DNA of 56,070 nucleotides, the filler included, from Sluysia triapertura (Eukaryota), in the NCBI GenBank assembly GCA_046118255.1. It is 4 parts of 4 records of this genome, joined end to end, with 100 filler letters (N's around TTAATTAATTAA, not from the genome) between each part and the next. Parts side by side here need not be neighbours in the genome. Positions count along the whole stretch, not along the records: positions 13,885 to 30,632 come from JBJNIA010198153.1; 3 more parts are not named here. One strand, written 5' to 3'. Every line of letters starts with the position of its first letter. The first letter of the stretch is position 1. This document shows positions 904 through 45,289 of the stretch, piece by piece. Both the position numbers and the translations under genes were made by a program. The notes beneath the pieces were generated by a model. It did no database searches and was not told where the DNA came from. It saw nothing but the letters and a program-made list of their open reading frames with translations.

Positions 904-2599
904 CGCGATAAGCCTTTTCATAAAACTAATTGAACTATCACCAGACAAACCATTGCAAGAAACTAAATGGATCGTTCATGGTTTTACATCTTTCCATACC
1001 ACTGCAAAACAAACAACTGTAATTTCTACTTCAAAAACATGTATAGATGAAATCATGATAGCACAAATAGGATGATCGTTTAGTGCAAATTTTTTATAAC
1101 TTCAAAATCTGATTTAAAATCGTAAAATTCATCGACATCGATATTAACTGAAGTTTGTAATAAACATTTATTCTATCTAGTAATTTTAAAGTCATCACTA
1201 TTGATGATTACGAAAATAATTGTGTAAATAAAATTTGTAATCAAGTTTGCCTCATTCGTGTTGGATGTACTTCTAAAATTGTCGCTTTCACTGGTCTTTC
1301 GTGTTTGACTTTACCTTTAGAATCAGATTAGTTCCCATCTTCAGCCCTGTTTCTACATTTAGTTTTTTATATTTAGACTTTTAACTCTACATGCACTTTA
1401 TTTTCATATTTTATTTTATTTCTACATCTAGCCTAACCTTAAGCTTTTTATTTAACTTAGCACTTATAACTAAGTTAACTTATAATTACGTTTTCTTTTA
1501 TGCTTGTTTTTTGTTTCGCGTCAGTATCCGAAAAATAACACAATTCAGAGAAAAAATTGCATCAAAAAGTTTATAACAATTGTAACCCAAACAAATTAGT
1601 TGTGTTCAGAATTAACAATATTTCACCTTTCGCCGATTCATATCTTCTGACTAAGAAAGTAGTTGGATCATCACCGGTTTCAATGGTGACTTCGGTTTTA
1701 CATATAAATGACCACAAATGGCGCGAGGTTGGGTTCATAAAGATTTACTGAATATTTTACGGACAGGCATATGATTTGGAGAAAATGAGATGGTGTTGTG
1801 CACTATTGAGTACTGCATGTATATTGATATATGTTCGTGACATGTTTGTGTTTCATGTTTCTGATATAAAATTGTCTGAAATGGGTTGGACCACCGCAGT
1901 TATACTTATTAAATTCATTTTAAAAGGTACGTTAAACTTGGATTATTAATCGAATTACTCTTAAGAACTATTGAAAAATAAATTGTTGCGAATTCTGCAT
2001 TTAGAATTTTCTGTTTTAGAAAATTTAGAATTTGGAATGTTTTTTACAAGATAAAATTCAAAAAACATTATTTGCCTTACGTTAATTTTTTTACTAATAT
2101 TACATAATATCTGAATTGTGTTTCACATCTATTTTAATCTTAATCTCTTTGACTGCTACGCGATTCTTTTTCGAGAAGCTGTGAAAATTTTGTCTAAAAA
2201 ACTAATCCAGATTATTTTTCAAGTCCTACGAAGTAAAGTTTTTTCTTTGCCGTAAGTTATTAAGAAAAGATTGGAAAAGTATGTGATCTGGGCCACAACA
2301 CTAATAATAAATGGTTTTATTACTTTATAAATTTCTTTTTATTTCTTTAAATGAGACTTGAAACTCATTCGTTATTAAGAATTAATTACTTTTACTGACT
2401 GCAAATAAATAAAACTTTTATTTATTCGGGTTCAACTTAGTTACTTTTAACCATTAAATGCCCATACTATTAAACCAAGGTATATTCCCATGCGGATATA
2501 AATATATTTTCAAAGAAAAATGAATTTAGACAATATTTTAAACATTTTTATTATGATTAATACAAGAAATTTTCATACATGAATCATTTGGACAAATAA

Positions 2600-8700: not shown

Positions 8701-9950
8701 GTTAATTTGAAAGAGAATAATGTATACTGGTTTTACTCAATCTCAATTTAATATAATTTTAACTCTCAGAATAATCATTATGTTCTTAAAATTTAATGTT
8801 ATATTGTCATTATATAATCTCATTTTAAAATGATTAATTATTTTATTTCAATCTAAAACTAATTGTTATTTGTTATTAAATTTTGAATTTGCATTGACTA
8901 TTAAATCTCATTTTAAATTGATATAAAGCATTATAATATTAATGATAATAATTTTAATGTTACTTTGAAATAATTTTATTTTTAAATTAAATAAATTTCA
9001 CATTTAATTTGAAAATTTAAAAATTAAATAATTGAAAAAATTAAGAATTAAAATAAAAGGTTGCATATTATGTACGGCTGTAACCGTACACGGTTAACGA
9101 GAAAGGCGGCTATAGCCGTCGCTGTCCGTAACTAGGCAAGTGCAACTGCACAGGGCTCAGGCCTGAAGGGAGTCCTTAGAGGGCTGACGAATGAATGTGC
9201 TCCGCCGAAAATTGAAGTCTGCTGACGATATTCTTATAATCGCTTTCTAATCCAAGAATTTGCTGTTTGGTTTTTATTTCAAATGTACTTTTTGAACATG
9301 AATACTGTTCGTTAATGAACTGCTTCGCACAAAATGTAAACTGAATGAGCTTGAATCTCTAGAGTTAGATTGACACAACACATTTTGTACGTATTACATT
9401 TTGCATTTATATAATCATTCTTTTAAAGTGGATCCATTTTGATAGAAATGTAATGCAGCACCTTGGTATTGTTGACTGGTTGATTCAAAGAATTTAATTT
9501 ATTTTTGAAATTACGCAATAATCAATTTAATTATAACTTCATTAATCTGTTTGACAACATTTCTAGTTGTAAGTTTAACATAATAAATGTGTATTATATA
9601 TTTTAAATCCATAAAATCATTGTTAGTGTTTAGTTTTATTAACATTTTAATAATCAATAATGTAGATCAATTAATAAGTGCACAAAAATAAACAATATTA
9701 TGTTTCCAATTTAATCTATTTCTAATATACGAGGTGATTATTCGTGATTTTCGGAAAACTGGCTATTGCCTTATGTTATTGATTAGAATGGTTAAAGAAT
9801 TTTGAAACAGTAACAATGTTTAACGGGTTTAATATTATAAAATCATATTTACTTTAATGTCATATTTCGAAAAATAATTTTACATTTTATTTTACTACTA
9901 TTACAAAACTAGTAATGCAATGTAAATAAATCTATTGCTTTAATATTTAG

Positions 9951-10131
9951 GCATTTTATTGTCTGGCTTGAATATTTTATTCTTTGGTGCCGTGTTTAAT
10001 ATGTTTTTTGGATCGAAAACCTTTATGACGGTGGAACTATATTTGGGTTTGGCTATTTTCAGTTTATTGATTTTGTTTGACACCCAATTGATTATTGAAA
10101 AGAAAAGAATGGGTGATAATGATTTCATTTG
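9951..10131 (+). CDS. TMBIM6: Internal exon of Bax inhibitor-1 (TMBIM6); other exons not found
   Basis: tttag|GC...TG|gttagt. Translates (G)ILLSGLNILFFGAVFNMFFGS...LYLGLAIFSLLILFDTQLIIEKKRMGDNDFIW, matching the BI-1 signature FDTQLIIEK...GD.D.IW. Confidence 0.85.
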
Positions 10132-13100
10132 GTTAGTAATTTATTTGAAAATGAAATACTTTTTCTATATATATCTACGCAAAATTAATTACTTCAGGTA
10201 AATATGTATTTTCTAAACTGTATTTGCATTCACAAACTCAATATTCAATTACAGCTTCATGATAAAATTAATGAAATAATATCAAATATATACACAAATA
10301 CAGAATGACAAGTTAGCAATTCTAGTAATTAGTGGCACGGCGTTTATTGTAATTTAATTAATTTTGAAAAATTAATATGGAAAATGTGACAGTGTGTTGG
10401 CCCATTAACTAACACTTAAGACATATTGACATCATCTGAACATGCCTTCCTATTTCGTTTCATGAAGAATACGAAAAAGTTCTGCCTATGAAAAATAGAA
10501 TTAACACGATGAATGCCACGCTAATTTTACGTGGCTTACCCGTCTAGTCAAAATGAATTTCTCACTATATGTTGCATATTTTGATGAAATATTATTTATC
10601 ACAGAATTTACAAAAATTTACTCGAATTATGTGTTTCTAATAATCTTGGCTTCGTCAGTCACAGCTGACCCCATGGCATTCAATGTGTTAAATAAGACAG
10701 CGGAAGAAATTTAAAATGTGTTATAATATCCGCCGAAAATATAAATGTTGTATTAATAATCGATGCAAATAAATGCTGCTTACTAATAATCAATTTGTAG
10801 TTCAAATAAAACAAATTTCAATGACTTAATAATTGTGTATCTCTACATTAGTTTGAATGCATATTATGAAACAATAAAGTTTATTTTTAGTTTAGTCTTG
10901 TACAATATATTCAATATGCGAAATTTGCTAGCATATTCAAGTTGTTGAATATGTATTAATAATAATAGTAATAATAACAATAATAATAATATTAAAATAG
11001 TTGAGCTTCTATATTGTGTTGATTATGATTTATACTTAATAATCAATAAATAATAAACTAAGTGCTATAATATTGATTTTATGTTTACGAGGCTAAAATT
11101 TACATTTTAAAATGGACGTTTTGATATTTTTTATTGTTTTTATACTTGTTTTAAGTACACATTAAAATTTTCTACAAAACTACTCGTAATTAACAGTGAT
11201 TTTAAGGCACATATTACATTATTAATTAGAAATACAAGATATTTCCAGACCAAATTATGTCTGGTAGTTCTTGCCTTTTACAGAATATTCAAATAATTTC
11301 AACAAACTAATAATACTACATGAATAATAAATATAAAATCAAATATTATCAGTACTTATTCATAAAAATAGGACAATTATAAAAATAGCTCAAAATATCT
11401 CTTCGAAGGATTGTTTATGGCTTTCAATAAATGTATCCGAGTTCCCTTTTCATTTTTGTGCTATATTTTAAAAAATTATCGTTCCGTATGTTTCAAAATG
11501 CCTTTGAAATTATTGACAACAAATGTGAAAAACTAAGTGCGACGTTGTAACAAATTTCATTTCCGTCCAAGTTAAGAGTGATATGAAAAAATTTTTAATA
11601 CGAATTTAATTGCGCTCGCGAAATTTTGAAAAACGTGGTTCGAACTATCAAGGAACCATTTGGTATCCTCATCTATCGACAGCCATGATTGATGCAAGAA
11701 TTCTAAGGTTTAATTTAAGAAAATATATTAACATTGATCATAAGAGATTGTTCAACAGCATTGCTACATCCTTTTAAACAATATTTAGAAAAGTGTGCAA
11801 GACTACCCTTAAGTACTTCTAGACGAAATGCATTTTCATTTTTAATACTAGCATATCGATTGATTTATATCCTTTATTAATGTTTATTATACATATGGCT
11901 ATTTGAAAGTGATTTGTTTTATAACCATTCTTCAATTTGTGGAATTATTCATTACATTTTTCGGCATCGAAATCAACTGAAATTTAAAGTATATAATAAT
12001 AGCATAAAATTAAATTAATTAGGTTAGATTTTAGTAATAACTTAAAATAGGTTCTAATAAATTAAAAGGTTGATATAATCTAATTTTAAAAATAAATAAA
12101 AATTTTTTTATAAATGTGAAAGATAAGCTTTTATAAATTTAATATAAATTATGCATAATACAAATGATTTTACGAAATTGAAGAGGTCATTTTATCCGTT
12201 CTAAACTACTCTGGTTTATCTGGTTTATTCGCTTGTGCTTAATTTGAATTGGTATAGATAGTTAGATTAAATTCGGATTTGGTGTTTTAGTTTTTGATTT
12301 ATTGTAATTGCACAAGTATGGAACTTGTCATATTTGCACTAGTTTTATTTAAGTAGTCAAAGTCGGTTTAAATGGTCAATTAATCACAAAAGTGAGTTGA
12401 ATGTCACTACAACTTCTGCTATAATCTGTTATACCTGCGAAGGTTTCAATGCCTATCGTAGTTTCGATACTTTAATATGTACCAAATATTGCAGCTTTGA
12501 CAATTACACTGTTTAAGAATTGTATGACTGTCGAAAGAAATCTCTATCGCCTTAAGCGGTATATCATCGTGATCACAGAAGCCGATTTATGCAAGAAAAA
12601 TGGATATCATTCGAATGTTATGATCGTCCGAAGAAATCTCCATCTTTGAATAATACCAATCAAATATTGTGATATTGCTAAAAGTTATTAAATATTACTA
12701 AATAATAATAGAAAATCATCACCACCACAAAACCTATATATTTAAGATTATGATTACATTTTAAGGATAATAGAAAATTGTTTTCATATCCTTAATATAA
12801 AATCACAAATCTTAAACGCCTGTAAAGCTATAGTATTAATAAAAATGTGTAATTTACAAATTCACTAATATTAAAAACTTAACGGAAAGGAAAAACAAAT
12901 AAATACATAAATTGAAAACCGTCATCATAATCAGAAAAAGATTTATCATCATCATTATCATTAAGAGGAACTGGCTTAGGACATAAAATAATACATATAA
13001 GCTGTTTTCATTGTAGTTCTGTAAATTAACAGTAAAGAAAAACTTGTGATAAATAACTGGTTATCTTCATTGTTGAATACTTACATAGTATCCAGCATCC

Positions 13101-13784: not shown

Positions 13785-13884
13785 NNNNNNNNNNNNNNNN
13801 NNNNNNNNNNNNNNNNNNNNNNNNNNNNTTAATTAATTAANNNNNNNNNNNNNNNNNNNNNNNNNNNNNNNNNNNNNNNNNNNN
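13785..13884. other. Artificial contig-joining spacer
   Basis: 44 N + TTAATTAATTAA (stops in all six frames) + 44 N = 100 nt; occurs three times identically. Confidence 0.97.
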
Positions 13885-14641
13885 TACCATAAGCGCTTTT
13901 GAGTACTTTCGCGGTAGATATGAGCGCAATATAAATTAATATATTATTATTAATATATTATCTCAAATTTTACAAAAGTAAATTAATTTTGAGTGTAGTT
14001 TATGATCAATGTAAATTTTGAACTTAATAATAATAATGCACTAACGATTTATGATAATAATAAAATTGTTTTTATCTTCTATGGAAATTGTAATCTCCTT
14101 CTATAAGAAATTTTTAAATGTCTTCTCGTTAATTTATCAGGATTTTAAAACAAACTTCTCCAAATAAAATTTTAATACTTTAAAAACCAAATATCTTATT
14201 AATTTATAAATATTTTAAAATAATCTTCTTCAAATAAAATTACAGCATTGAAAACTAATATATCAATTTGTTATTGAGAATTTATAAATATCTTCGTTAT
14301 TTTTATACTATTTTTTCGTTTACCAACAATTGGTTGGTATAGAAATATATCTAGTAGATTTAAACAATAAAATTTTTGATAATAATAATTTTTAAAGTGT
14401 TTTGATAATAATAATAATAAATTTTTGATAATTTAATAATAAAAAATAAAATTTAAATATTTTAATAATTTTAAATATTTAATATTTATATTTCAAATAT
14501 TTTAATATAATTTTTAATTATTTTACATAAATTTCAAATAAAATATGAAATAAAAATATATAAAATATCTTTACCAAATAAAAATTATCATAAGAATTCA
14601 AAACGAACCATAAAAGATAAAACGATAAAAATTAAAATTAA

Positions 14642-15919
14642 TCAGATGTTAATAATGTAATAGTCATCGTTATCAAAATCCAGACTGAAATAATCATCGT
14701 CAAATAATTCATCCATTAACACTGTTTCTTTATCCACTGTATCGTCCAATGAATTTTAAATTTTCCGCTTCTTTGTCGCAGTCACGTTGCCCATATCATT
14801 TAATCCGGTGAGTGTTATGTCTTTATGTTTCATGCTTTTATGTGGAAGATTTTGTGCAGAATTTGTACTATGTAATAGAGAAGAAAATGTAGAAGTAGAT
14901 GGAATTTGATTATTCAAATGTTGATTAATCATTTAGGGTAAAAATGATGCATCTCTCTGCTTAATCAATTCAAAAAGTGATGTATAACCTTGTGCTAATT
15001 TTGTGCAAGTATTTCTCGGTGGAAATGGATACAACAGTTTTACTACTTTCCTAGCACGATTTGACGGATGAAATGATGAGTATGAAACTAAATTTGTAGA
15101 AGTTAAATTGATAATGTCACGTAACCATCCAAAAGGTATTTGAAATGTCCTAATAATAAATTCCGGTCATCAAGCTACAAGTATATGATCATGTAATGTA
15201 ATTAACCAAAATTTTCTTATTTCTGCAATATCTCTCGCATCTTTTAGATCATTTTCTCTTAATCCATGTTCTACCTTGAGAAAATCCTTAATTATCATTC
15301 TTGGTTTTATAAGTTCTTCGGAATGATATTGTTTATGATATGGTGTAAAACCAGCTCAAATAATTTGATGTCTATCATGAAAATCTAAAGCCAAATTAAT
15401 TGCTACAAATATTAAATAATCCTTATTAGCTTTATCTTCGTAAGGTAAATTCGTGAAATTTAAACCTTGTTGCCAAATATTTATGTTATCAACATCAGAT
15501 TCATATAATAATGGAAAAATTGTTAAGTCTATTATATCCACAAGTTTTTCGAAAAGAACAGCAAATGTTGTTGGTAGTTCTTCGGCTTCTACTTGGATTC
15601 TAAGATTTTCCTTTATATTAGAGAGAAGAATCCTTGTATACCAGAGTGTAAAGGAAGATTATTAATGAATAACGTTACTTTCAATGCTCCTCTAGCTACT
15701 GTTATTAGGATCATACCTTTTTCTACTGGAAAGCCTTCTAATGCTTTTACTCCGTAAAGATAAGTAATAAAATGTATCCATTTCATTCTTCAGAAAATTT
15801 GGAGTTGATTTTGAATCTAAGAATACAAATGGAGTATCATTGTTACCACAAAATCTATCTATTCCATTATAGAAGGAATTAATATTGTTTATTATATGCG
15901 CATGTGGATAATCCGACAT
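14642..15919 (-). pseudogene. Cassette copy 1, ORF-B: about 420 codons, frameshifted; beta-rich (possibly cupin-like) N-terminal region, KKRK, acidic tail
   Basis: MSDYPHAHIINNINSFYNGIDRFC... / ITVARGALKVTLFINN / LSNIKENLRIQVEAEELPTTFAVLF... continuing through stops to TKKRKI*...DELFDDDYFSLDFDNDD. Homologous to 20355-21015. Confidence 0.65.
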
Positions 15920-16088
15920 TATAGCTTCTTCGAAGTATAAGAATAATACATAAAATATATAAATATTGTTAACAATGAAAAAATAATCGTTAGTTCAATA
16001 TTGGTAATTTTTTATTTCTTTATTAATATACTCTTAAATCCTATGTATTTTAGGAAATTAAAATAAAAAAGAATTGAAGGAAATTAAA

Positions 16089-16553
16089 TTATTGATTGTT
16101 CTTCTTTAAAAATTTATGTTTTCTTAGTCTTTGATATTTCTTATATAATCCTGCCTGCTTGTAAAATTTTCTCACTTCCCTACGTCGGCGACTGTGCTTT
16201 TGAGATTTCTTCAACCCAGGAGGGAAATTTGTTGGAGGAACAACTAAAGTGTTTGGAGTATTTTTATTGAGTTCCTCTGGTTGTATTATTTCCACTTCAT
16301 GTACTTCTATACCTCTTTCCAATATATGCGGTGGAATTTTCTCAAAGATGTATTCGTAGAGAAAGGTTGTCTTACGGAATACATTCATACTTATAAGCTG
16401 AATCCTACAAAGAGGACAGTCTACCGTTTCCCCTACAGAATGTTTGAAAAGAACTACCATACATTCAAAGTGAGCTTTATGATCGCAAAGTGACATCTTT
16501 ATGTACTTTTTGTGAATACTTTTTTGACATATGGGGCAACATGTGAAAACCAT
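16089..16553 (-). CDS. Cassette copy 1: intronless RING-H2 finger protein with basic C-terminal tail (putative E3 ligase)
   Basis: CPIC...CDHKAHFEC...CPLC gives the C3H2C3 ligand set; tail SRRRREVRKFYK...KKYQRLRKHK; intact 154-aa ORF. Confidence 0.85.
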   Translation of the reverse strand: MVFTCCPICQKSIHKKYIKMSLCDHKAHFECMVVLFKHSVGETVDCPLCRIQLISMNVFRKTTFLYEYIFEKIPPHILERGIEVHEVEIIQPEELNKNTPNTLVVPPTNFPPGLKKSQKHSRRRREVRKFYKQAGLYKKYQRLRKHKFLKKNNQ

Positions 16554-16879
16554 GTTCTGAAATGCAATACAGAAATTAAAAAAAAAGAAATAAAAAAATA
16601 TAATAATATTAAAGTTTTTTATAAATTATATATTAAAAATCATATTTTATATTTTTACAAATTAAAACTATATAAATTAAAACTGTTTATATTAAAAAAC
16701 TTAAAAACTATGTTATACATGTAAAAATCCTAACAGCTAATATTGACATTTTAAATGACAGTATTAGAATTTGGCAGCCTGTCAGACAGAAGAAAACCGT
16801 ACTGATTACTGCCTATTTTTCATACGTCATTATACCCTACACTTTAATGGTCTTTAAATAATTATTTTTGTATCTTGGG

Positions 16880-17647
16880 TTATTTTGGTTTAGTACAAAT
16901 TTTATAATGTTTTCTATAATGATATTAACCATAAGTGTAGAATAAAGCATAATTATTAAGATGTAAAAATATACGTTAATTTTAATATCATTTGGTTGAA
17001 TGTTAATCGATGTTAAATTATTATAGTTCTGAAGGTTAGTTATTTTAGTATTGTCTTGAGTTACTGAGGATTTTAATGTCTTCTTCTTGTAGTACTTACG
17101 AACTTTTTTACTTTTTATTGTTATGTTTGTGATAGGTATTACTAAATAGGTATTTAATGTTTCATTATTTGTAAGTATCCATGCGTGTATTATTGATAAT
17201 AATGAATCAGCTTGATAATTTAGTTTGACTGTTTGTTTTGGTGCTATGAATCCATAAGTATATCCTGTGTTTATATAATATCTGACAATAATTAATTGTT
17301 TTCTAATGGATTTGTTATCTTAACAAAATTATGACCATACTTTTTTGCTAATATTAAGCATTTCATCGCTATCTTATCAAAGAATATATAATGGTTAGTT
17401 TGAATCAATGATCTTGTGTATATATTGTCCTATCTATTAATTCAATAGTTATCGTAACTTTATAAAATTGAAATTCGAATAATTCGTCACAATTAATTAT
17501 CCAGTATTTAGTAGTTTTATAAGGATTGTTTGATGTAATAGACCATTTTTCCAGGCAACATCGTATTGATAAATATATCAGTTTCTTGTCTATTATTTTA
17601 ATAACAGCTATTATCTCATCTGTTTTCGATTGAATTGATAGTTGCAT
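16880..17647 (-). pseudogene. Cassette copy 1, ORF-C: membrane-anchored protein with S/T-rich stalk (frameshifted)
   Basis: ORF 17405-17647 continues across frameshifts into IIHAWILTNNETLNTYLVIPI...KSSVTQDNTKITN...VYFYILIIMLYSTLMVNII. Matches 21925-22441. Confidence 0.5.
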
Positions 17648-17721
17648 ATTATAATAATAAGGAATTCTTTTATTTATACTATTTTTTGTGATTTTTGATG
17701 CATAAGTATCAGAAATTCAAG

Positions 17722-18258
17722 TTAGACAGATACAGAGTAAAACATAGACACCTGTATTCCACTATAATGTGTAGGAATTCTTGTATTACTATTATAATCA
17801 TAAATTACTTGTGGTATCATTGGTGGTCCTGGAGGAGCAAAGAATGAATGATTTCGTGAAATTGAATAGTGATTATTGTTATCATCATTGTTTGACGAAT
17901 GCGTATTTTTGCACTTAGTAGTAATAAATATATCAATCATTAATAATGCTATTATTATTGCTATTATAAATAAAGTACCTGAACTTAATAAAATTATTAT
18001 TGATGGATCCTTAGTCAACTTCTTTAGAATAGTTGTTTTTTCCCGTTTACCTTTTATTGAATAGTGTAACTGTTGAATAGCTTTAGCATGATTTTTTACA
18101 AACATAACTATGTGTCTATCCTTCGTTGCCATAAAATCCCTGCAAATTGTTATTGGATACATAGTTTTAGGTATACTTTGTTTGTAAACTTTCCATATGC
18201 TGAAATTAAATCTTGCGGGGTTTATACAAATATATTGTGCTTCGATACTGTTATCCAT
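17722..18258 (-). CDS. Cassette copy 1, ORF-D: single-pass membrane protein with Pro/Tyr-rich tail
   Basis: Intact 178-aa intronless ORF; hydrophobic run IIILLSSGTLFIIAIIIALLMIDIFI; tail APPGPPMIPQVIYDY. Confidence 0.6.
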   Translation of the reverse strand: MDNSIEAQYICINPARFNFSIWKVYKQSIPKTMYPITICRDFMATKDRHIVMFVKNHAKAIQQLHYSIKGKREKTTILKKLTKDPSIIILLSSGTLFIIAIIIALLMIDIFITTKCKNTHSSNNDDNNNHYSISRNHSFFAPPGPPMIPQVIYDYNSNTRIPTHYSGIQVSMFYSVSV

Positions 18259-18395
18259 TATTTTAACTTATATCTTTGTGTCGTAATTATAAAAATCAAA
18301 ATATTTGGGTCGATAAACTCTTTATGATCCATCCTAAATGGTCATTAAAAATTAACAACACTAATAACATTACATCTCTTTTCATATTTGAAGTT

Positions 18396-18397
<2 letters not shown>

Positions 18398-18461
<64 letters not shown>
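18398..18461. repeat. (AAT)n microsatellite
   Basis: About 21 perfect AAT units; explains the poly-Ile ORF. Confidence 0.95.
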
Positions 18462-18464
<3 letters not shown>

Positions 18465-18910
18465 TTCTAATAATGTAATAATAATTTTAAATATAATAAT
18501 TTTAATAATAATAAAAGTATTACTAATAATAATATTAATAACAACTATTTATTTTACATCCTATCTAAAATTATTTAATATTTCCTTATGAATTTACAAA
18601 AAGTATACATTTACATATACAAAATCATTTAATTACTTTTGCAAGACTAGATTTATTCATAATACCAATAACAATCATTTATTTTAAAGATTTTAAATAC
18701 TTTATAAGATTACTCGAAGATCTTAGATGCCTAACAAGGTTTCAAGAATACTTAAAGGTTAATAAAGTCTCAGATTCACAAGCTCAAAGGTACTCTAATA
18801 TTTTCAAATGTTTTTCAAGTCCATTTTGTATTGATTTTTCATATACTTGTAATTTCATACGTTTTCCATCCATATTCAGTTTTACATTTGGGCAATGGAT
18901 TCAGCTGCAG

Positions 18911-18950
18911 ATATATATATATATATATATATATATAGATATATATATAT
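18911..18950. repeat. (AT)n microsatellite
   Basis: Direct read. Confidence 0.95.
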
Positions 18951-20200
18951 GAGCCAGAAGCTTATCAAAAACGAATAGAATTCTAGAATGTTCTATTTTT
19001 AGAAATTAGATCTCCTTTTAGAAAACAACAATTTTAAATGATTTTAGAGAGTTGCAATGACAAGCTAACAACATAAACATCTTTTTCTTACTAGTACTTT
19101 ACACAAAGAACCAAGACGGGAATGTAGTACATAATATTATATATCACACTTTTGAATAAATTATTATAGCATGGTTAGTTGTCAGATTAAATTCCCATAG
19201 ATTATAACAGGTGTTCCAGTGATACGTGGATCACTTTTCTGATTAATTGACCATTAAAATGAACTTTGACTATTTAAAATATTACTCAATGCAAACACTT
19301 TAATTTCCATAGACGTGCAAATAAACTAAGCTCTCCATGCTTGTGCGAATATAATTCTTAACATGTTATAAAATATTTTTGATCAGGATACGGCTACAGT
19401 GTACGTCTTGTAATTTGAAGTGGTCGTATTTGTAACTAAAATTCGATAATGATCAATATAAAATCGCTTTACTTGTGTGAGGATTGGTGAGGATTGGTGA
19501 GGATTGAGGATCAGAACACTATTTTGATTATATTATTTAATAACTTATTTTATTCATTATTTATTTGTTAGCTATAATTATTTAATGATCATTTATTTTA
19601 TTTATTCATTTTATAAAAATGCTTATTATTATTACAAAAAATAAAGGAAGATTTAAAAAAAATTAAAATTAAAATCTAAATCTAAATTAAATCTTAAAGA
19701 AGTAGAAAATAATCATATTTAAAAAATTAAAATTGTCTAAATTTTGTTTCATTAGACAAAATTAGTATATTTTGTTTTAATGGAACAATTATTTAAATAT
19801 AATAAACACCGCAATATGGCGGTTAGAAATTCTGTATATAAATTGGTGACTTTGCAGAATTTCTACCAGTCATTAGCAAGAAAATTTTATTCTACAGGAC
19901 GCAGATTAATTTTCCATGAAAGTAAGATTTTTAATTGTATGTTTTTTCATCTTCTCACCGTAAAAGGGAGAGTAAATTCAGACTTAAAATCTTTGTCATA
20001 GTTTTGCATATACCGTAATTTGGATAAGTCAAAATCATCAAACTAAATTCATTAAATCGAATTTAAGTATCCTAAAATAATTATCATTATTATATATTTA
20101 CACCTTGTATCTATTTTGTATAAGTCATATCTTTGAATAATAAAACTTCAGGCTAATTACTCGAGTTTTTTATTACTTAAAGACAAAATCATCATTAAAC

Positions 20201-20322
20201 GCTAGACCGTAATAAGGCTAGCTTAAAATCATAAAATAATATCAAAAGCTTTCAACGATTAGACCGTAACCGGCTAATTTAATATTTTATTTTACTAAAG
20301 TTAGACCGTAAAAAGGCTAACT
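20201..20322 (-). repeat. Array of three bulged hairpins 3' of cassette copy 2
   Basis: GCTAGACCGTAATAAGGCTAGC, ATTAGACCGTAACCGGCTAAT, AGTTAGACCGTAAAAAGGCTAACT. Confidence 0.8.
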
Positions 20323-20354
20323 AAAAATCATTTAAATTACATATATTTAAAAGT

Positions 20355-21015
20355 ATTAAAATAACTTCATATTCGTCGTACGTAATCCTCGCCTTAAGTT
20401 GATAATCTTTACGCGATCTTTTCTAAGTTGAATGAAATGCTAACAGACCGCCGTCGTTCAGACTTAAGCCGTTTTCTGTTAGGCGAACTCTTTCCAGGTT
20501 AATATTTGCATCGTAAGTTAGGTGATAACAACTTTGCATCAGTATCCTCAGCAAAAGGAAGAAAGGATGGGGCAAAAAGAGGGATTGGTGGTAATACAAA
20601 GAGGATAGCGATGTGGGTTGGAAACTCGAGAGCTTCCACTAAGATTTCGCAATCTTTTGTCTACTCGGAAAGGTGGAGAATTGACAAACCTTCTATACGC
20701 AAAATCAACAGAGTCCCTTCGACAATTAGTGTAATTTTAACAGATCCCCGTGCGGATACAACATACATAGTGTCAAACATAGCTGGTATATTGGCTAGAT
20801 TTCGCGAAGAGATGAGGCGTTGTTTTGGGGTTAATGAAGAGATATGAGTCGTCAGGTTCGGACTTTAATTTACACTCGGTATCAAAAGAATTAGGGAAAA
20901 AGGTAGGGGTGGGATTTTCGGAACAAAAGCGATCGATAGAATTATAAAAGGCCCGAATTTGATTGATAATGTTTGCTTGTGGGCGCTGGGTATGTTGGAG
21001 TTGTTGTTGTTGCAT
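20355..21015 (-). pseudogene. Cassette copy 2, ORF-B homolog (frameshifted)
   Basis: MQQQQLQHTQRPQANIINQIRAFYNSIDRFC... / VVSARGSVKITLIVEG...LSE*TKDCEILVEALEFPTHIAILF aligns with copy 1. Confidence 0.7.
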
Positions 21016-21166
21016 TGATTTTGGACTGAAGAAAAATAAAACTGTAGTATAATAGAATAAGTATATAAAAATTATAAAACGAGGGATTCCGTACAAGTAA
21101 TTTATTGTCGATTTATAATTGTTATTTTATTACAGTAAATAATAATATTTAGGAATTAATATTGCT

Positions 21167-21585
21167 TCAAAAAGGATTATCGCACAATCGTTTATTCTTT
21201 ATATAAAATTTTCTGAGTTGGCGTCGTCGGTAATTACGTCTGGGCACCTGAAATTCGTTATACAGGAAGGTAACACCTGGGGAAGTTGGAGGTTGATATC
21301 AACACTCGTGTTTTCCTGGAGCCCTTGAACAGCTACAACAGGAGTTGAATTTGGTTGGATGTATTTTATAGTAAATTAATAGGATCTACGAAAAACTTTT
21401 TTTATAGTAGATGTCACATTCCGTAATTGTGGCTCGACATAGAGGACAAGGAGGTAAAGGAGTTAAAGCGGAGTCAAATAAGAAATAGAGACATCGAAAA
21501 CGGAAACGGTGCTTACAAGGTATTGCTATGGCATAATATTTGTGGATTGGTCTATGGCATATCGAACATAGTGTAAATCGTAATA
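21167..21585 (-). pseudogene. Cassette copy 2: RING-H2 homolog (absent from ORF track)
   Basis: FTLCSICHRPIHKYYAIAIPCKHRFRFRCLYFLFDSALTPLPPCPLCR...RRNYRRRQLRKFY. One His ligand is Arg, no ATG, reading frame disrupted. Confidence 0.8.
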
Positions 21586-21924
21586 AAGATTGTTTTTTTG
21601 CTAAAAAGTAAAATTGTATAATAAGATAATAACTACTTAAAGGAAGTAAAATTAATTTATCCTAATAAAATATATTGATAAAATTTATTCCTAACTAGAT
21701 AATTAATGCTATGTATGATTTTAATAAAATATGAGTTCCAACACCATCCTTCACACAACCGAAAATGGATAGTTAACAGCCATCACATATGTTTAGTAAA
21801 CAGGGAAATGCTATAACTCATATTTTATACTTATATAATTTATACATTAACGAAAAAATGATTTTTATGCCTTATAAATATGTAAAACTTATGAATTTGA
21901 AATACAATGCGTATAAATGAAGTA

Positions 21925-22441
21925 AAACTTAATAAAATGCGATAACTAAATATAGCATGATATAGATTTACAGAAGTAGTAGGAAATTTAAACGTGAATG
22001 ATTATATGATTGTGAACTTATATTTTTACTTCGTACCGTAATGTAATTAGTAGTCCTGACATTATTTGTAGTATTTAACATACTTAACGTAGTAGTGGTA
22101 GTAACTGGTGTTTGATAATTTATGACACCTAATTTGTCTAAAATAGGTACCACTAAATTGCACGCTCTATACTCTGGTCAAAATCCAAGAGTATCGTGGT
22201 GAATCTCGTTGTAACGTAAAATCCAAATTTCAATAAATGTGAGGTTACGTTCTGGCACAAAAAATAAATGAATACTTGTGTTGGGAAGTATTCGCGCGTA
22301 ATGTTGTTCTTTATCAAATATTCCATCGAAGTTTTTACTAGAATGATTCTTTTTATTTGCTTCATAACTTATTAATATACTAAGTTTCGTTAAAAGATTC
22401 GATACACGAACGAAGTTATTATCCTCCATATACATTATCAT
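21925..22441 (-). pseudogene. Cassette copy 2, ORF-C homolog
   Basis: ORFs 22178-22441 and 21968-22153 are in one frame across a TGA: FIEIWILRYNEI...NLVVPI...VTTTTTLSMLNTT...LNFLLLL*IYIMLYLVI. Confidence 0.55.
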
Positions 22442-25400
22442 TGAAAATTTAATAGTTGTTGATATATGATTAAAAGTATATAGTTTGTTCTAATTCTGTA
22501 ATTATATATATTGGCATAAATCCTAAATATAGAGTGACATTGAATAATTGATTTTCCATAAGACCATCTGTAGTGTCCTACTCACTCACCCATCTTCAAC
22601 ACAGGCATTCACAAACATCTATTACACATTACATCAACATATCATAACTTAAATAAAATATAATATCTTTTAACTTGAATAATATATAATATACTGTAAT
22701 TTAAACAGATTATAATATATTTAAATTACAATAATTTATTATATAATATTACTTTTAATTCGCCGTGATCACCTTTTCCAACTCCATCAACATTGCGTAA
22801 ATTTTCACATCCTTTCTTTTTGTTATTATTAGTAACATTATATGTTTATTATTATTGTTACAACTTTTATTATCTCCTGAAATGGTTACAACCTTTACAA
22901 CAATTTTATTTTCGAAATCAGGTACTTATTTTATAATGGTCCTTTTCAGTAATTATAGAGTTGTTTTTTGTGTACGGATTGAATACGAAATCAATGTTAT
23001 ACATTTGAAACATTATTATATAATTTAATTTGTCAAATCTACCAACGGATTATACTTTATTAATTTTATTCGGTGCATGTTTCTTCTTTTTTAGTTATAT
23101 CTAATCATTTCAATTAAAAGGTAAGTATATTTCATACTTATTGTGTATTATATATTTTCTTAGCCATATTTATTATTGCACATTGTCAAATTGTTGGCCA
23201 CAGATCAATATTAAATATCACTATACAAATGTACATAAATGCAATGCACACACACACTCACTACATTCACATAGAAAAAGTGTACACATTGGAGAATATT
23301 TCATTGTTTTTAATAATTGCAAAAAAATCTTTTAAACTGCTTCATCAAAAAGTACGGAAATGCATCTTTTTAGACGAAATCTTCTCTATTGTGTACTTGT
23401 ATGTTTTAGATCATGGTCTAGTTATTTATTTTCTATTCGGTAGAAAACATTGTGTATATTTTTAATGTGTATAAAGTGTAATATTAAACATTTTGTTTTC
23501 CCAGGAATTTGTATCAAAGTGTGATAAATCTGTATAAAACAAAATTTTAAAATTTATTTTTATCGAAATGATTATTTTATCTATGGGGAATTATACATTT
23601 ATTCCTTTAATTTTGGATTGCTTTGCTTCTTTTGTTAAATGCTATATATATTATACATTATATACTTGTTTTTTATTAAAAGCAACAAATGAATTTGTTT
23701 TTTGTTAATTTTTGTTTGTGTGGGTGGAAGATGATGATGTTTTGTTATATTATTTCGATGAGTTTTTGAAAAAATTAGAAAATTTCTCGATTTTACTTTT
23801 TCAATAAATAGTTTATTTTATTATTTTATTTGTATAATTCGCGCATTATCTATTCATTTATCTATTCATTTATTTTGTCGTCATATCTTTGAAAACGGTA
23901 CTTTTAGATGTTTGTTAAAACAAGAACATTAAGTTAATAAAAATTATTATCAATTTAGTTATTAATATTATTATTTTGTTGGAAAATATTATCCAGTTAT
24001 TCTTTGTTAATATTTATTTATATATCTTACTTGTTTTGACTAACATTTTACAAATATAAGTGCTAATTTATATATTGTATTGTTTTTTTCTGTTGTGATT
24101 TTTGATTTGTGAGATTTTGATTGTAAAAATGTATATGATATATTTATATAATTTAAACTTGCTCTATTCAAAAATATTACTATATTATCATTAATATTAT
24201 CCAGTCTCTTATATATTTAAAAATTTAACAGGTGTTTAGTATATAAAATGTGTTTTTAATTATCTTTTTATTTGAATAATTTCTTCTAATACAAAGATAA
24301 TTTTTAGTTGAAATTGTGAATTGTTTGAAATATTTTCTATTTTTATATATTTGTAAGGAAGTTGCAGTTGTTTTATTTTGATTATAATTACGATGTTCCT
24401 CAAATATTGCATTTGTTTAATGATTAACTGCCAGTAATATATCCGAATAAGTAATTAATGGAAAAATAAATATAAAAAGCACAGTAAATACTTAGCAGAT
24501 TTTAAAATAATTTTTGAGTCAGTTGGAGACACTTAATATTACAAATTAGTAGTATTATGGTTCACGACTCAGTAAAACGTTGTAAAGAAAGAATTATATA
24601 TATATTTTGTGCCCCGAAATGCAAAATTGTTTCTAGAACAATAGAAAAAGAAATAAATTTAATTTATAGTGCTTTTTGATTATGTGGGGTGCCAGGCTGA
24701 GGTTAAGATTTCGGCACGACACTGGTACTGAAATGTGAATAATTACCCGAGATATTTTTAATGCAAGGACAATTGAATTTTGAGTCTTGCAAATTAAAAG
24801 TTAATATCCCATTTAGAAATATATGATTCGGTTTGAAAATGAGTAGCAAAAATAAATTATATAGAAAATAGTGATGGATACACGTTTTTTAAATGTAATT
24901 GTGAACAAAATTTGTTAATGCTCTAAATTGAAATGGCTATTAAAAATTAATATGGTAAAGTAATTCTTTTATGATAAGAAATTGCAGATGTATAATCAGA
25001 ATAAAAATATTAAAAATCAAACTAAAATGGCAATAAATGAAATCTCAAAATAATCAAATAAGTAATATCGTCGTTTCTTGTCATTTATTATTCTGGTTGT
25101 TTTGATTAAAGATCCATCTACTGTAAGCTTTTTGTTTCAGTTTTTTTTATAAATAAACAGTTTTAATATTTTCATGATTTGGACCAACATTAATCTTAAG
25201 TATTAGATAATACTTTCAATGTCATCTTAGTTTTCATCTAAATTTAATTATTACTAATTTTTAACTTAAAAAATAAATACATCAAAAGTTAATGAAAATG
25301 TAAGAGAAATGTAACAATGTATCTCCTAAGGATAAAGGTGTCATTACGTGGCAATTTTGTCTTATCACTGTGTGGCGTGTAGTGATGCGTTTATTGTTAT

Positions 25401-25659
25401 TTTAATATGGTAAAACGTTACATTAATTTCTGATGATATAAAAGATTGTGAGGGCTTGAAATTATAAATAACATTGAACTGTTTATAAAGTTTAAACCTT
25501 AAGATAGTACATTTACAATTGAAATTCAGAACCTTATCTAGTATAATATTATGTTGTAATGGTTTGATGGGCTTTATAATTTTAATATTTTTTGTGTATT
25601 TAATGTTATTGAAGTTAGTTACATCACTACTATTATAATTTGTTCTAGTATATAAGAGC

Positions 25660-27321
25660 TCACCCTCAAGCTGGTCGATACTCTCTTCGGAACACTTGTC
25701 GGTAACATCACATGCAATTATTTGCAATATCTCATTGAGCTCTTGTGCGACGTATAACTGAACATCTCTTTGAAGCATTTTATCAAATATTTTAAGATAT
25801 TTCTGGGCTTCTCTACTATTCAATTTAATCTTTTCGATTGTATTAAGTAAACTAAAAATCTTAAGACTTAAAATTGCTATTTATTAAATAAAAAATTTTA
25901 TTAAACACTAAATATGTTGGTTCTAATTTTATTGTAGTGTATAACTTCTTGTCGTCCATGAATCCCGTTTCGTTGTTGGTGGAACAATTATACCTAGAAT
26001 AAATAACATAAATATAATAGTTATAAGACAAAGGATCAATAGATATTATGGTGAAATTATTACCTTGTTTAGTCATATGATTGATCAATTCTTCTTTATC
26101 TTCCATTTTACCTTGCTCATCTCCAACTTCAATATACTCTTTGAACAGTCGATGGACGAAATTGTTACTATCAAAATCTTTGTCTAAGTCAGGAATTACA
26201 ATCGCCGGATAACTTTGGTGCCCATATTCAACAATTTTTTTGTCCACATTACAAATATAATTACCATTGTTTTCATATATCATTAAATGTTTTGACTTTG
26301 ATACTGTTTTTGTGAATTTCATTCCTTGGCCTCTACTAATTAATTCGCCACATAATCTTGCTCTTTCGGTTATTAAACACTGTCTCGAGATAAGATCATT
26401 AATAGAGTCTCGTCTAATCGACTCCAAATCAACATTTGTAGGAAAACTTTCATTAGGGTGCATGAACTTGGTCTGTCTAATATGTACAACTGTTTGCTTA
26501 GCATCTGGTATATAATTTCGGTTTTTAAATTGTATTTTTCTAAATTTTTTTCTTTTATTTCTTCTAATACAATTATCATCTCGATGATATCTTGACTTGG
26601 TATCTCGATATGCATGGTTAGAAAAATTTGCATCCGTAAATTTACCATCTACTGTAGAATTTGTCACTTTAAACTTAGTGTGATTAAATGAATTATTCTG
26701 AATCATTTGAAAAGCTTCAATTGCATCCATAGATAAATTAAAACATTCCAGAATTTTGTCAAGATATTCTTTAACATAGTGTATATTCTTCATGAAGAAT
26801 TGTACATGCCATAGCAAAAATGTTCCCAGGGAGATTACGATTATATCCAATATTATGAATAAAGAACTAAAGATCTTGAATGTAGCATTGATAAGTATAC
26901 TTGAAATATAGTACATTTGAACGAATCTTTAAAAAATAATTTTGTTAAGTCTGCTTTTGATCTTTTGAAAATTTTTCTTTTTAATTTTTTTGTTTCTCCT
27001 TTTCTTTATTTTTGCATGATAGTTTTTAATTATAAATTTGTGATCTAATTTTAGTTTTAGCTGCTAATTGGCCGTTCAGCTAGAATGTTACTCACCCAAT
27101 CAGAGTATTTTGATTATGAGTATAACTGAGTTCATTCTGATTGGGTGAAAGTAATTAACATAAAATTTGCATACTTGTGTGGCGTCATCAGCACAGACAT
27201 TATTAACTTTAAAAATAACTCCGACTTCATCTGACTTTAAATTATCCATCAAGCAAATATTTAAATTATAATGAGAAGGTCGTAGTTTATAATCATCTAT
27301 TGATGTAACTTTATTTGACAT
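25660..27321 (-). CDS. Multi-exon gene or young pseudogene, unknown function; N-terminal hydrophobic segment and basic patch
   Basis: 351-codon ORF (25861-26916) is unlikely by chance at this AT content. Flanking exon-like blocks end in GT donors (DDATQ|gtatg; SIDQLE|gtgag). Stops upstream of the long ORF. Confidence 0.55.
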
Positions 27322-27699: not shown

Positions 27700-28657
27700 T
27701 GATCTTATTAAAAAATTGTAGCTATAAAACGTAAAACATATATTGACTAAAACATAACAAGAACTAGAATTTTCAATTAGATGATAAAGATATGATAAAT
27801 AAAGTTGTTTAATTTCCTTTGAATATGCCGCCGAAAGTACTTTGCTTATTTTTCTAAATAACAATAAGAACATAATTATAATCATAAAATAAAATTAACA
27901 AAATGTAAGGATTTACCTTAAGTATGTCAAAACTTTGAGGACTGAACAAAGTGTGGTTTTGTTGGTTATAGGCAATTGCATGACAAACTCTAGTATTGTT
28001 CTTAGACTTTATAGTAAGTCTTAGATTCGTTTACCATGATCATCGATATTTGGCATGGAGTAAACAGAATGTAGCCTTGGAGATCAAAAGTACCAAGTGA
28101 ATAGATACATTTATAGCCGTATTTGATACATTCGCCTGCTTCTGTTGACTCATAAATATACAGTGCAGTTTTATAAAATCTTGGATGGAATTTGTTTTCA
28201 CTGTTTCAGATCTTGATACGCGCGTATTGTTGATTGATTTCATTTGCCATACTATTTGATTTTGAAGGGATATCAGTAGCCGATAGGACTTGGTTATTAC
28301 TTATTCTGATAAAAGTGTTAGGCGTTAGCGTTGAAGTTGAAATTGAATGATTAATACTTGCTACGTTTCTAACGACATCGTGACCAATATTTGTACAAAA
28401 AACATCAGGTGAAATCGCCGCGATACTATCATTAAAATTAATTGAAGTTACTTGATTTTACAGAATTTATTTTCTATACTAACATTTTTCTTTCTTTTAG
28501 TTAATTCATTATTATATTCAACAGCCTTTTGTAGCAATTTTGAAAGGAATGCCTCATTATTTCTCAAAGTTTGAATGAACTCATGTAATTCTGTATAAAT
28601 ATTTTTTATACTGACTTTTCGCTTTATTTCTAATTGAATAAAATAATCGTTTCTCAA
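27700..28657 (-). pseudogene. Decayed gene with Unkempt-type CCCH zinc finger
   Basis: About 28075-28192 reads FHPRFYKTALYIYESTEAGECIKYGYKCIYSLGTFDL, versus remembered Unkempt YHLRYYKTGICIHETDSKGNCTKNGLHCAFAHGPHDL (C-x9-C-x6-C-x3-H). Two ligands mutated; stops nearby. Confidence 0.65.
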
Positions 28658-29469
28658 TCTATTTTCAAATGATAAATGATATATTTGAGCTTAAGTAAGT
28701 ATGAGCTTGATGATGTTCATCGTAGTCATAATAATATTCATAATCATCATTATCATAATTGTCGTCACAAGTAGTTATTTCTTTATAAATTTTGCGTGAC
28801 ATTTACGATCAAAGTTCATTTTGAAGTATATCTTTTTAAATCTAAATTTTGTAACAATAATCTTTTTAAAATTCTAAGTAAATATCAATTAAGTGAGCTC
28901 TATAACTGAATGTATTTTTCTTTTTCATTAATTTTGAGTAAATAATAATTGTGGTATCAACAATAATGGTGAACGAATTTTATTGAACTACAATTAAAAA
29001 TTATTGCTATTAGTTGACCGATTACTGCGTTGTGTTGCTGCAAAGGCACAAGTACTGTTACTATGCAAAGTCAATTTATACTGATTCTAAGCTGTCAAAA
29101 TTGACGGAAACTCGATTTTTTTAATAATGCAAATCTGTCAAGAAGGACAGTTAAATAGTTGCCAAGAATACATAAAATGTTAATGATAGTTAATAATTCG
29201 ATTTGTAATAATGATAGTAATAATAATAATGCAAAATTTACTCTACTATTGCAAAGTGTTTCTGAAGGTCCGTCCGACTAATTAGGTAGGATTTATATCA
29301 GAAAGAAGACGCCCTAATTATATTTAAACTTTAGAGGAATTTGTTAGTGCTATGATATAATAATACTGGTAGAGAATGCCTTAACAATTCAGGTTGAAGA
29401 AGGACTAATTTGGCCTTAGACAAATAATGCTTTAAAAAATAATATTAATATACAATAGGTACTCGTTGA

Positions 29470-29753
29470 ACCAGCATTTTTACGGTCTGGTCAATTTCTA
29501 ATTATATTAAGCTTTAAACCAGCCTTTTTACGGTCTGGTCCATTATCAATTATTTTAAATATCACGAAAATCAAACCTAAATAATGGCTTTTATTTGTTA
29601 TGTTACACGAAATATTGCAAAACAATAGGATAACGTTACAATAAATAATATTATAATAGATATACTGATTTTATCAACTTAAGCTTACTGCTTAGTTGAA
29701 TTCAAAATTCTTAGATTTTAGTGGAATTTGACCTAGCCTGTTACGGTCTAGGT
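29470..29753 (+). repeat. Second array of three bulged hairpins, inverted relative to 20201-20322
   Basis: ACCAGCATTTTTACGGTCTGGT, ACCAGCCTTTTTACGGTCTGGT, ACCTAGCCTGTTACGGTCTAGGT. Confidence 0.8.
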
Positions 29754-30632
29754 ATAAACAAACAATTATTTTAAGTAAAAATTTTAAAATCTCTATTAGA
29801 TTACAATTAGAGAAATGTTAATATACGACCTTATATAAATAAAATTACTTCTGCATGGATGGAAAAAATTATATTTTCGTTGGAAAAATTATATCTTCTT
29901 TGAGCCGATATTTTTGTTATTCCCTTATTGCCTTTTTCCTAAATTTCGCTTGTCAAATTTTTACTTAAAATCTTACCTATTTATACTATTTCAACTCCTC
30001 CATTTTGGAATTATTTCATTAAAACAATAATAAATTATTGAAACAAAAGTTTTCATTTTAATAAATTTTTTACTTTTACTTTAATACTAATAATATTTAT
30101 TTTTCTAAAATAAAAATAAATAAAATAATTGCTAATAATAAATAAATAAAGTAATTGTTAATGACAAATCAAATTGTTATTTATTATCAAATAATTAAAT
30201 CATTTGTTTTCTGCTTATATATCCATTACCATTGTCCATTTTATTTTTTATTAATCCAATCCATTCTAACAAATAAAAAATCCATTCTAACAATAATAAA
30301 AGTAAAAATCAAATAAATTCTTTTAACACATTCTTCTTTTATTTAAAAATTTCTTAATAAAATGTTCTTTATTAAAATATTAATTTGTGAGAAATAAAAG
30401 TCAATAGAATAAAATTTAAATTTAAATTAAAGCTGTGAGTTCACCAACATAGTGGACTCACCAGCGAGTGCCAGCCGTTGGATTTTGTAAAGTAAAGTAA
30501 TGGAGGTCAAGTCAAAAAACGATTAAATTTTCTTAGATATATATTAATTGTTTCAAATTGTAGGGAACTCGTCATTCGGTAATCATCACAATTCATCACA
30601 CAATATTCATAATAACTCATCTCATAAAATTC

Positions 30633-30732
30633 NNNNNNNNNNNNNNNNNNNNNNNNNNNNNNNNNNNNNNNNNNNNTTAATTAATTAANNNNNNNNNNNN
30701 NNNNNNNNNNNNNNNNNNNNNNNNNNNNNNNN
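30633..30732. other. Artificial contig-joining spacer
   Basis: Same N44-TTAATTAATTAA-N44 structure. Confidence 0.97.
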
Positions 30733-42651: not shown

Positions 42652-42751
42652 NNNNNNNNNNNNNNNNNNNNNNNNNNNNNNNNNNNNNNNNNNNNTTAAT
42701 TAATTAANNNNNNNNNNNNNNNNNNNNNNNNNNNNNNNNNNNNNNNNNNNN
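42652..42751. other. Artificial contig-joining spacer
   Basis: Same N44-TTAATTAATTAA-N44 structure. Confidence 0.97.
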
Positions 42752-45170: not shown

Positions 45171-45289
45171 TTTATTAAAGATTTTAAGTCTTATTTTCAT
45201 ACCTCCTAATAGAGATGGAACCTAACATAAAAACTTACTGATAGTTTTTTTAAAAATTTCAGCCACAGTTTAAATAAATTTTTGTTCAG

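Follow-up and report, generated by a model that had tools for sequence, protein, structure and literature searches.

Two runs of one gene cassette in a Sluysia triapertura contig

We analyzed a 56,070-nucleotide stretch of the Sluysia triapertura genome (assembly GCA_046118255.1; G+C 25%), here called the window, in which four contigs are joined by N44-TTAATTAATTAA-N44 linkers at positions 13785-13884, 30633-30732 and 42652-42751, so that linkage across the linkers carries no meaning. Our subject is a cassette of small open reading frames (ORFs) inside the contig at 13885-30632 (JBJNIA010198153.1), where six-frame translation gave two gene runs on the minus strand, both in the order ORF-C, RING, ORF-B. 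The cassette genes are apparently intronless, lie on one strand and are separated by spacers of 37-370 bases. A first-pass annotation of the same DNA had reported these two runs, their shared order and an additional ORF-D upstream of copy 1 only, and these placements, together with every peptide it quoted, were recovered in our translation. It had overlooked ORF-E, the joins between the four contigs, and the clustered motif and inverted arms, described below, that flank copy 2.

Copy 1 begins with ORF-D (17722-18258, minus strand, 178 amino acids (aa)), which possesses one strong transmembrane (TM) segment at residues 87-105 (hydropathy 2.89) and a C-terminal tail rich in Pro and Tyr, and which found no family match in Pfam, PHROGs or NCBIfam. 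ORF-E follows (17405-17647, minus, about 80 aa, no family match) and may represent the N-terminal portion of an E-C membrane gene that has been broken; a shuffle-tested comparison gave no clear counterpart of ORF-D or ORF-E around copy 2. ORF-C (16837-17370, minus) encodes a Thr/Asn-rich stalk with five NxS/T sites and a C-terminal hydrophobic segment, with stops at 17331 and 17322. ORF-C/E and ORF-D each carry single hydrophobic segments. The RING-H2 ORF is open (16089-16553, minus, 154 aa), with a C3H2C3 pattern at residues 6-49 and a basic tail. ORF-B (14642-15919, minus, about 425 codons) is broken by five in-frame stops (15358, 15172, 15169, 14935 and 14758) and by frameshifts near 15770 and 15620, and its layout runs from an N-terminal helix and beta region through a DnaQ-like domain to a Ser/Thr-rich linker, a basic KKRK motif and an acidic tail.

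Copy 2 is more damaged at its ORF-B end. Its ORF-C (21932-22441, minus) has stops at 22180 and 21970 and keeps the C-terminal hydrophobic segment, its RING ORF (21152-21580, minus) has a tail interrupted by stops at 21388 and 21301 and probably by frameshifts as well, and only the N-terminal half of ORF-B is left (20360-21015, minus; a stop at 20663 and at least two frameshifts), breaking off where the exonuclease-like domain would start. The RING-H2 finger assigned to both copies by the first-pass annotation holds in full for RING1, which carries the complete C3H2C3 ligand pattern, but RING2 has Arg in the fifth ligand slot, and Pfam RING scores of E 1e-5 to 6e-5 (zf-RING_2 on copy 1, E 5.7e-05) fall below the curated cut-off. 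RING1 fits the RING-H2 zinc finger pattern, and E3 ligase activity would follow from what is known of the family.

An exact look-up of 10 window proteins found none of them (0/10), and a word-based protein search with RING1, over limited length ranges, gave no close relative. In the spacers, TATA-like words occur at chance level (p 0.10) and AATAAA is marginally enriched (7 vs 2.9 expected, p 0.025); neither was used as evidence.

ORF-B as a predicted dead derivative of DnaQ-type exonucleases

The first-pass annotation had called ORF-B beta-rich, which describes its N-terminal third but not the remainder, where we find a DnaQ-like alpha/beta domain. On its own, the broken gene had no match in Pfam, PHROGs, NCBIfam or PDB, nor in word searches. 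A DnaQ-like pattern was first noted by eye, and the hypothesis was set before the profile test, for which we used a DnaQ-family profile of 38 sequences taken from bacterial RNase_T-family matches. Against this profile ORF-B alone scored 7.8 bits (1/1000 shuffles), with an HHalign value of 8% (0/150 shuffles).

A full HMMER search of 1.84 billion proteins with ORF-B revealed two relatives, both unnamed singletons on short contigs: P0006 (365 aa, 31% identity, E 2.7e-17) and P0007 (176 aa, 32% identity, E 1.7e-9). P0006 is one open frame, free of stops, with the whole ORF-B architecture, and matches the N-terminal helix of both copies (copy 1, 2/1000 shuffles; copy 2, 0/1000) as well as the main domain. 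Neither relative has a Pfam match, Pfam RNase_T itself is without a match on the ORF-B family, and a word-based search with the broken ORF-B and P0006 (limited length ranges) returned only P0006 itself.

With these relatives added, the evidence for a DnaQ kinship sharpened. The 3-row ORF-B profile aligned to the DnaQ profile with an HHalign value of 88.5% (E 2.7e-6) and a score of 42.4 vs at most 21.3 in 150 column shuffles, and single members of the family scored 5-8 bits (0-2 of 500 shuffles). Arrived at independently of the DnaQ guess, a search of 177,635 PDB sequences with the 3-row profile gave at E up to 10 a sole match, 2p1j (E 2e-4), a PolC-type polymerase III exonuclease. The ORF-B family is collinear in alignment with five DnaQ-family proteins. 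We therefore place a DnaQ/PolC-type (DEDDh) exonuclease-like domain at 14960-15415 (minus) of copy 1, and by profile and alignment evidence we regard ORF-B as DnaQ-like by descent.

Most catalytic residues are gone. With the Exo motifs located from the DnaQ rows of the alignment, neither the Asp nor the Glu of ExoI is present in the two ORF-B rows that cover them, and the ExoII Asp and ExoIII His are missing in all three rows. Because the loss is also seen in stop-free relatives, it is a trait of the family rather than a product of decay, and the domain is predicted to be catalytically dead.

Other identities for ORF-B were tried and set aside. A dUTPase and a family-1 uracil-DNA glycosylase (UDG), suggested by motifs seen by eye, both scored within the shuffle range, with HHalign values of at most 0.3%, and a cupin-like reading of the N-terminus was unsupported by Pfam or PDB profiles. 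The exonuclease-like domain contains 0 Cys in P0006, 1 in the window copy and 0 in P0007, so a Maelstrom domain, whose EHHCHC zinc site is described in PMC2628886, does not fit. A programmed frameshift, suggested by the similar position of a shift in the two copies, is disfavoured because other contigs have indels there and P0006 is one open frame.

Two old subfamilies diverged under protein-level selection

Comparing the copies inside the window by tblastn, RING1 and RING2 share 35% identity over 62 aa (E 1e-9) and the ORF-B N-termini 53% over 47 aa (E 5e-9), with no cross-match between the ORF-C copies. Shuffle tests (2000 each) gave p values of 0.0005 for RING, 0.005 for the RING tail and 0.0005, 0.001 and 0.0035 for the ORF-B pieces, with 0.016 for ORF-C. 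By these comparisons we take RING and ORF-B to be paralogous between the copies and ORF-C weakly so, such that the protein conservation previously proposed for the whole cassette holds for RING, its tail and ORF-B but is weak for ORF-C.

At the DNA level, similarity between the copies is only at chance. Across 165 ungapped codons, from four blocks picked out of the copy 1/copy 2 alignments, base identity at codon positions 1, 2 and 3 is 79, 102 and 52 (Fisher p 1e-6), with third positions saturated; from this pattern it follows that the two copy lineages diverged under protein-level selection. The copies are separated by 2.1 kb of unrelated DNA, and their 5' and 3' flanks show no alignment to each other beyond chance. 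On this sequence evidence we regard the two copies as members of two old subfamilies, without recent tandem duplication; the head-to-tail arrangement first described therefore stands as regards strand and order, but not as a simple duplication.

A highly repeated family whose copies decayed

One public sequencing run, whose kind is not on record, contains 0.44 of the sampled words of 14600-22500; no RNA data set was listed as containing them, which has no bearing on expression. Mapping its contigs at 80% likeness onto 14690-16545 of copy 1 (1856 bases; RING, spacer and ORF-B) placed 1075 contig records, of which 102 are 99% or more identical to the window, 182 are 95-99%, 407 are 90-95% and 384 are under 90%. 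Summed depth per bin ranges from 265 to 4768 (median 1806), vs 15.7-25.7 for the eight long pieces listed; as summed depth is no copy number, we read it merely as tens to hundreds of variants. At most 32 contigs depart from the window sequence at any one place. The depth of the RING-ORF-B spacer equals that of the genes, and one record links RING with ORF-B over a 977-base deletion, so that at least one further copy retains the gene order. The cassette is therefore a multicopy family, highly repeated in this run and more than a local duplication, and RING, spacer and ORF-B were amplified together. The first-pass annotation had named a family limited to these two copies, or an order not conserved elsewhere, as observations that would speak against its reading; we found 1075 records and another contig with RING beside ORF-B.

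The lesions of copy 1 are its own. At all five ORF-B stops, 93-99% of the depth has another letter, and indels occur near both ORF-B frameshifts (3 contigs each). Among the differences listed (40, with 339 further; dropping 6 spacer rows leaves 34), those private to copy 1 fall evenly on codon positions 1, 2 and 3 (11/12/11), and changes overall comprise 263 transitions vs 116 transversions. Copy 1 thus decayed neutrally after the subfamilies had diverged under selection, as the first-pass annotation had proposed in its claim of diverged DNA, conserved protein and selection before decay. Among mobile elements, dead copies are expected to show selection between lineages and, in the copy that was inserted, neutral decay. 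Both are found here, the pattern seen when a once-active element leaves a dead copy.

Might some of the depth reflect free viral or episomal DNA, or the DNA of a different organism in the run, with few integrated relics in the window? The kind of run is not on record and the depths of all contigs were summed, which leaves room for such a source. Most records, though, are less than 95% identical (791/1075), the changes are mostly transitions, and among the long pieces listed, gaps or deletions are single-digit and of low depth, as in a cloud of decayed copies; we consider this explanation highly unlikely.

Weak inverted arms flanking copy 2 and a possible 11-kb unit

The motif TAGACCGTAA-N2-3-GGCTA has four exact matches in the window where 0 are expected. 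Three lie on the plus strand at 20203, 20260 and 20302 (span to 20319), abutting the truncated end of ORF-B copy 2, and one lies on the minus strand near 29750, with near-copies at 29534 and 29486. These clusters sit within two degenerate arms, a left arm at 19348-20297 (plus) with the three exact copies and a right arm at 29443-30381 (minus), inverted with respect to the left. Aligned inverted (19348-20297 against 30381-29443) the arms score 247 vs at most 160 in shuffles, with three control pairs at chance; in the comparison with local shuffles they reach 250 where no shuffle exceeds 198, and no other block in the window scores higher. They are about 1 kb each, mostly carried by the short motif, and no sharp ends and no target-site duplication were identified.

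Copy 2 may therefore lie inside an 11-kb unit bounded by these arms, a possibility that we hold to be about evenly balanced; the arms could alternatively be two separate regulatory repeats. Further putative members of the unit are two stop-free ORFs of 351 and 171 aa at 25365-26916 (minus), unusually intact for a decayed region and without a match in Pfam, PHROGs, NCBIfam, PDB or IMG/VR, and an Unkempt-like CCCH zinc finger within a decayed ORF at 28080-28187 (minus; Pfam zf-CCCH_UNK 32.4 bits, cut-off 31.1), which was the sole meaningful score in a six-frame Pfam scan of 22.5-29.4 kb.

A second Unkempt-like CCCH finger lies on another contig at 31152-31793 (minus; Pfam E 0.0011, compared with 8.6e-08 at 28080-28187); the two fingers are weakly alike (1/1000 shuffles) and possibly belong to another repeated family. 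Beside the left arm, 19199-19329 forms an inverted pair of 130 bases (73%) with 12299-12427.

What may have carried the cassette

As the first-pass annotation had stated, no pol, capsid or polymerase is linked to the cassette: Pfam found no pol, integrase, PolB or capsid in the ORFs scanned or in six frames of 22.5-29.4 kb, and scans with PHROGs and NCBIfam gave nothing meaningful. PolB, integrase, ATPase, protease and capsid were likewise without a Pfam match between the arms or in the cassette ORFs, with which a deleted Polinton/Maverick derivative may remain compatible. Among the repeats listed there is no long direct repeat around either copy, in a contig that may be too short for long terminal repeats (LTRs); no hammerhead was found with Rfam at gathering score or at E up to 1, a search that divergent hammerheads can escape; and TRF found no telomeric array.

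We conclude that the two runs are broken copies of a highly repeated cassette, which probably served as accessory cargo to a large mobile element or endogenous virus not yet described, with ORF-B as a DnaQ/PolC-type derivative predicted to be dead. A highly repeated family that passed through selection and then neutral decay supports the accessory module of a mobile element proposed in the first-pass annotation, but no core gene, LTR, target-site duplication or hammerhead was found that would tell a retroelement from a virus. A DNA-virus-like carrier with inverted ends is favoured over a giant retroelement, given that each gene is a small ORF of its own and that copy 2 lies between inverted arms, a preference that stays tentative and short of even likelihood, and some other kind of mobile carrier seems a very slim prospect.

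Several observations weigh against the mobile-element interpretation. No core gene of any element is linked within the 16.7-kb contig by Pfam, and scans of IMG/VR, metagenome and phage collections brought no relative to light. The depth data derive from a single run, of a kind not on record and perhaps itself the source of the window, which contains 0.44 of the words and gives no copy number, while the mapping covered RING and ORF-B of copy 1, with copy 2, ORF-C, ORF-D, ORF-E and the arms outside it, and the indels that bridge the frameshifts (3 contigs each) make up a minority of the depth. With the motif masked the arms score 181 vs 176, stricter gap costs leave 100 bases of them, and there is no such arm downstream of copy 1. 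For ORF-B, P0006 and P0007 have a Glu at the ExoIII Asp position, and both AlphaFold models were of low confidence (pLDDT 32 and 37), and the fold searches, which gave no match, were uninformative. Decayed ordinary genes also occur in the same genome, as judged by eye, and pseudogene status alone is thus not diagnostic.

The host genome itself could have produced such a locus, if a cluster of host genes (surface proteins, a RING ligase and a pseudo-nuclease) had multiplied through segmental duplication, or as a passive passenger of a non-autonomous DNA transposon, and birth-and-death had left many pseudogenes. This would suit the missing link to a core mobility gene, the lack of viral relatives, the presence in the window of decayed host-like genes (Bax inhibitor-1 (BI-1) by Pfam; YIPF3-, CBP- and kinase-like by eye, unconfirmed) and the Unkempt-like CCCH finger between the arms with a related one on another contig. 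It sits poorly with four or five unrelated, apparently intronless genes at spacings of 37-370 bases, and with a broad cloud of 80-99% identical copies bearing copy-private lesions; the nearest solved relative of ORF-B is moreover bacterial and PolC-type, with no eukaryotic DEDDh structure scoring at E up to 10. We judge a host cluster rather improbable.

Alternatively the cassette might be the 3' accessory region of a giant retroelement, either a Burro-like LTR element or a Terminon-like Penelope-like element (PLE), with ORF-B as a dead DEDDy counterpart. According to PMC5408684 and PMC6431247, bdelloid LTR elements and Terminons carry a DEDDy exonuclease together with TM ORFs, and Burro carries RING-related, ubiquitin-linked domains; the genes of our cassette share one strand, Terminons typically form head-to-tail arrays (PMC6431247), and many dead copies fit retrotransposition. 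Yet the exonuclease ORFs known from such elements are DEDDy with intact catalytic residues, whereas ORF-B is DEDDh/PolC-like and lacks most of them, and the contig contains no reverse transcriptase (RT), integrase, LTR, hammerhead or telomeric array. An integrase-like remnant at 55.0-55.5 kb lies on another contig and was seen by eye only. A giant retroelement is, in our estimate, a fairly unlikely carrier.

Other remnants in the window

The remaining contigs hold further decayed sequences, most of them recognized by eye without support from Pfam. At 55000-55530 (minus) lies what we take to be a broken gypsy-type integrase, and at 49300-49835 (minus) presumably a broken REX4-like DEDDh exonuclease, which shows no similarity to ORF-B beyond chance. 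We also assume a broken, apparently intronless YIPF3-like gene at 48040-48594 (plus) and kinase-like remnants. A 443-aa open frame at 42753-44084 (plus) starts with a fragment that we presume to be CBP TAZ1-like, and a 39-base tandem repeat of 8 copies comes next. An apparently isolated Bax inhibitor-1 exon lies at 9944-10135 (plus; Pfam E 1.7e-11); together with the YIPF3-, CBP- and kinase-like remnants it points to a eukaryotic host that is likely an animal. In the fourth contig, 44600-45175 and 53215-53590 form a direct repeat pair of several hundred bases (84-92%), and a tRNA-like Rfam match at 44757-44827 (minus, 39.6 bits), uncalled by ARAGORN, is possibly a pseudogene or the head of a short interspersed nuclear element (SINE).

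Comparison with known systems and possible function

We compared the cassette with described elements, and it resembles their accessory regions, yet the defining features of none are found in this contig. Juno and Vesta, which are bdelloid LTR elements, and Terminons encode a DEDDy exonuclease (ORF3) with intact catalytic residues alongside TM ORFs (PMC5408684, PMC6431247), so that here too a DEDD-superfamily exonuclease and TM ORFs appear as extra genes of repeated elements. Theirs adjoin gag-pol or the Athena RT, neither of which is linked to the cassette, and unlike DEDDy ORF3, ORF-B is PolC/DnaQ-like, possesses an additional domain at its N-terminus and is accompanied by a RING-H2 gene. 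Burro, a giant gypsy element of planarians, is likewise of high copy and carries accessory domains, RING-related and linked to ubiquitin, that are thought to interfere with host pathways, but its domains lie mostly in one polyprotein of 4,900-5,100 aa with gag, env and pol (PMC6431247), whereas the cassette consists of separate small ORFs with no gag or pol seen. Polintons/Mavericks, with 5-10 ORFs including PolB and integrase (PMC6431247), have several separate ORFs between terminal inverted repeats, a possible parallel to the 11-kb unit; in contrast, no PolB, integrase, ATPase, protease or capsid gene was found with our cassette, the arms are weak, and all its ORFs run in one direction.

Maelstrom and EXD1 are inactive DEDD derivatives that keep RNA binding (PMC5408684), and with a DnaQ-family fold and lost DEDD residues (Maelstrom, PMC2628886) they offer an analogy for what ORF-B might do, although they are host factors of the PIWI-interacting RNA (piRNA) pathway and Maelstrom has its EHHCHC zinc site where ORF-B has 0-1 Cys. 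The PolC-type exonuclease 2p1j is an active bacterial proofreading domain within a polymerase, whereas ORF-B is a separate protein without most catalytic residues. Reuse of inactivated enzymes is also seen in viruses, herpesvirus UL8 being one example (PMC11599850), and DEDDh exonucleases occur among the proteins of RNA viruses (PMC11796362).

Full-text searches of the literature gave no description of this combination of genes; subscription papers, Repbase and supplements, where the family could be listed, fell outside the search, and this negative is therefore weak evidence of novelty. We propose a new accessory cassette with a putative new pseudo-exonuclease family, for which any function is suggested by sequence features and analogy.

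Intact master elements would have manipulated the host cell by expressing the cassette. As a nuclear E3 ubiquitin ligase, the RING-H2 protein with its basic tail could eliminate host restriction factors. ORF-B, entering the nucleus through its basic KKRK motif (an acidic tail is also present), might bind nucleic-acid ends with its dead exonuclease fold and protect the nucleic acid of the element, or block host silencing as an RNA-binding decoy in the manner of Maelstrom/EXD1. ORF-C/E and ORF-D may be cell-surface or envelope-associated proteins, and inserted copies would then have decayed. Taken to its most specific form, in which an undescribed family of large virus-like mobile elements in an AT-rich animal genome combines a RING-H2 ligase and surface proteins with a dead bacterial-type DnaQ exonuclease, a mobile counterpart of Maelstrom that blunts silencing by binding nucleic-acid ends, we hold the proposal to be doubtful.

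Large mobile elements of animals are known to carry accessory genes, but the exonucleases so far reported there are catalytically intact. ORF-B, a conserved DnaQ-type exonuclease derivative predicted to be dead, belongs to no Pfam family and has two relatives among 1.84 billion proteins; accompanied by a RING finger on a highly repeated cassette, it is a candidate for an element-encoded factor that would counter silencing or protect ends, and ORF-B and RING together may serve as probes for finding the carrier in a better assembly.

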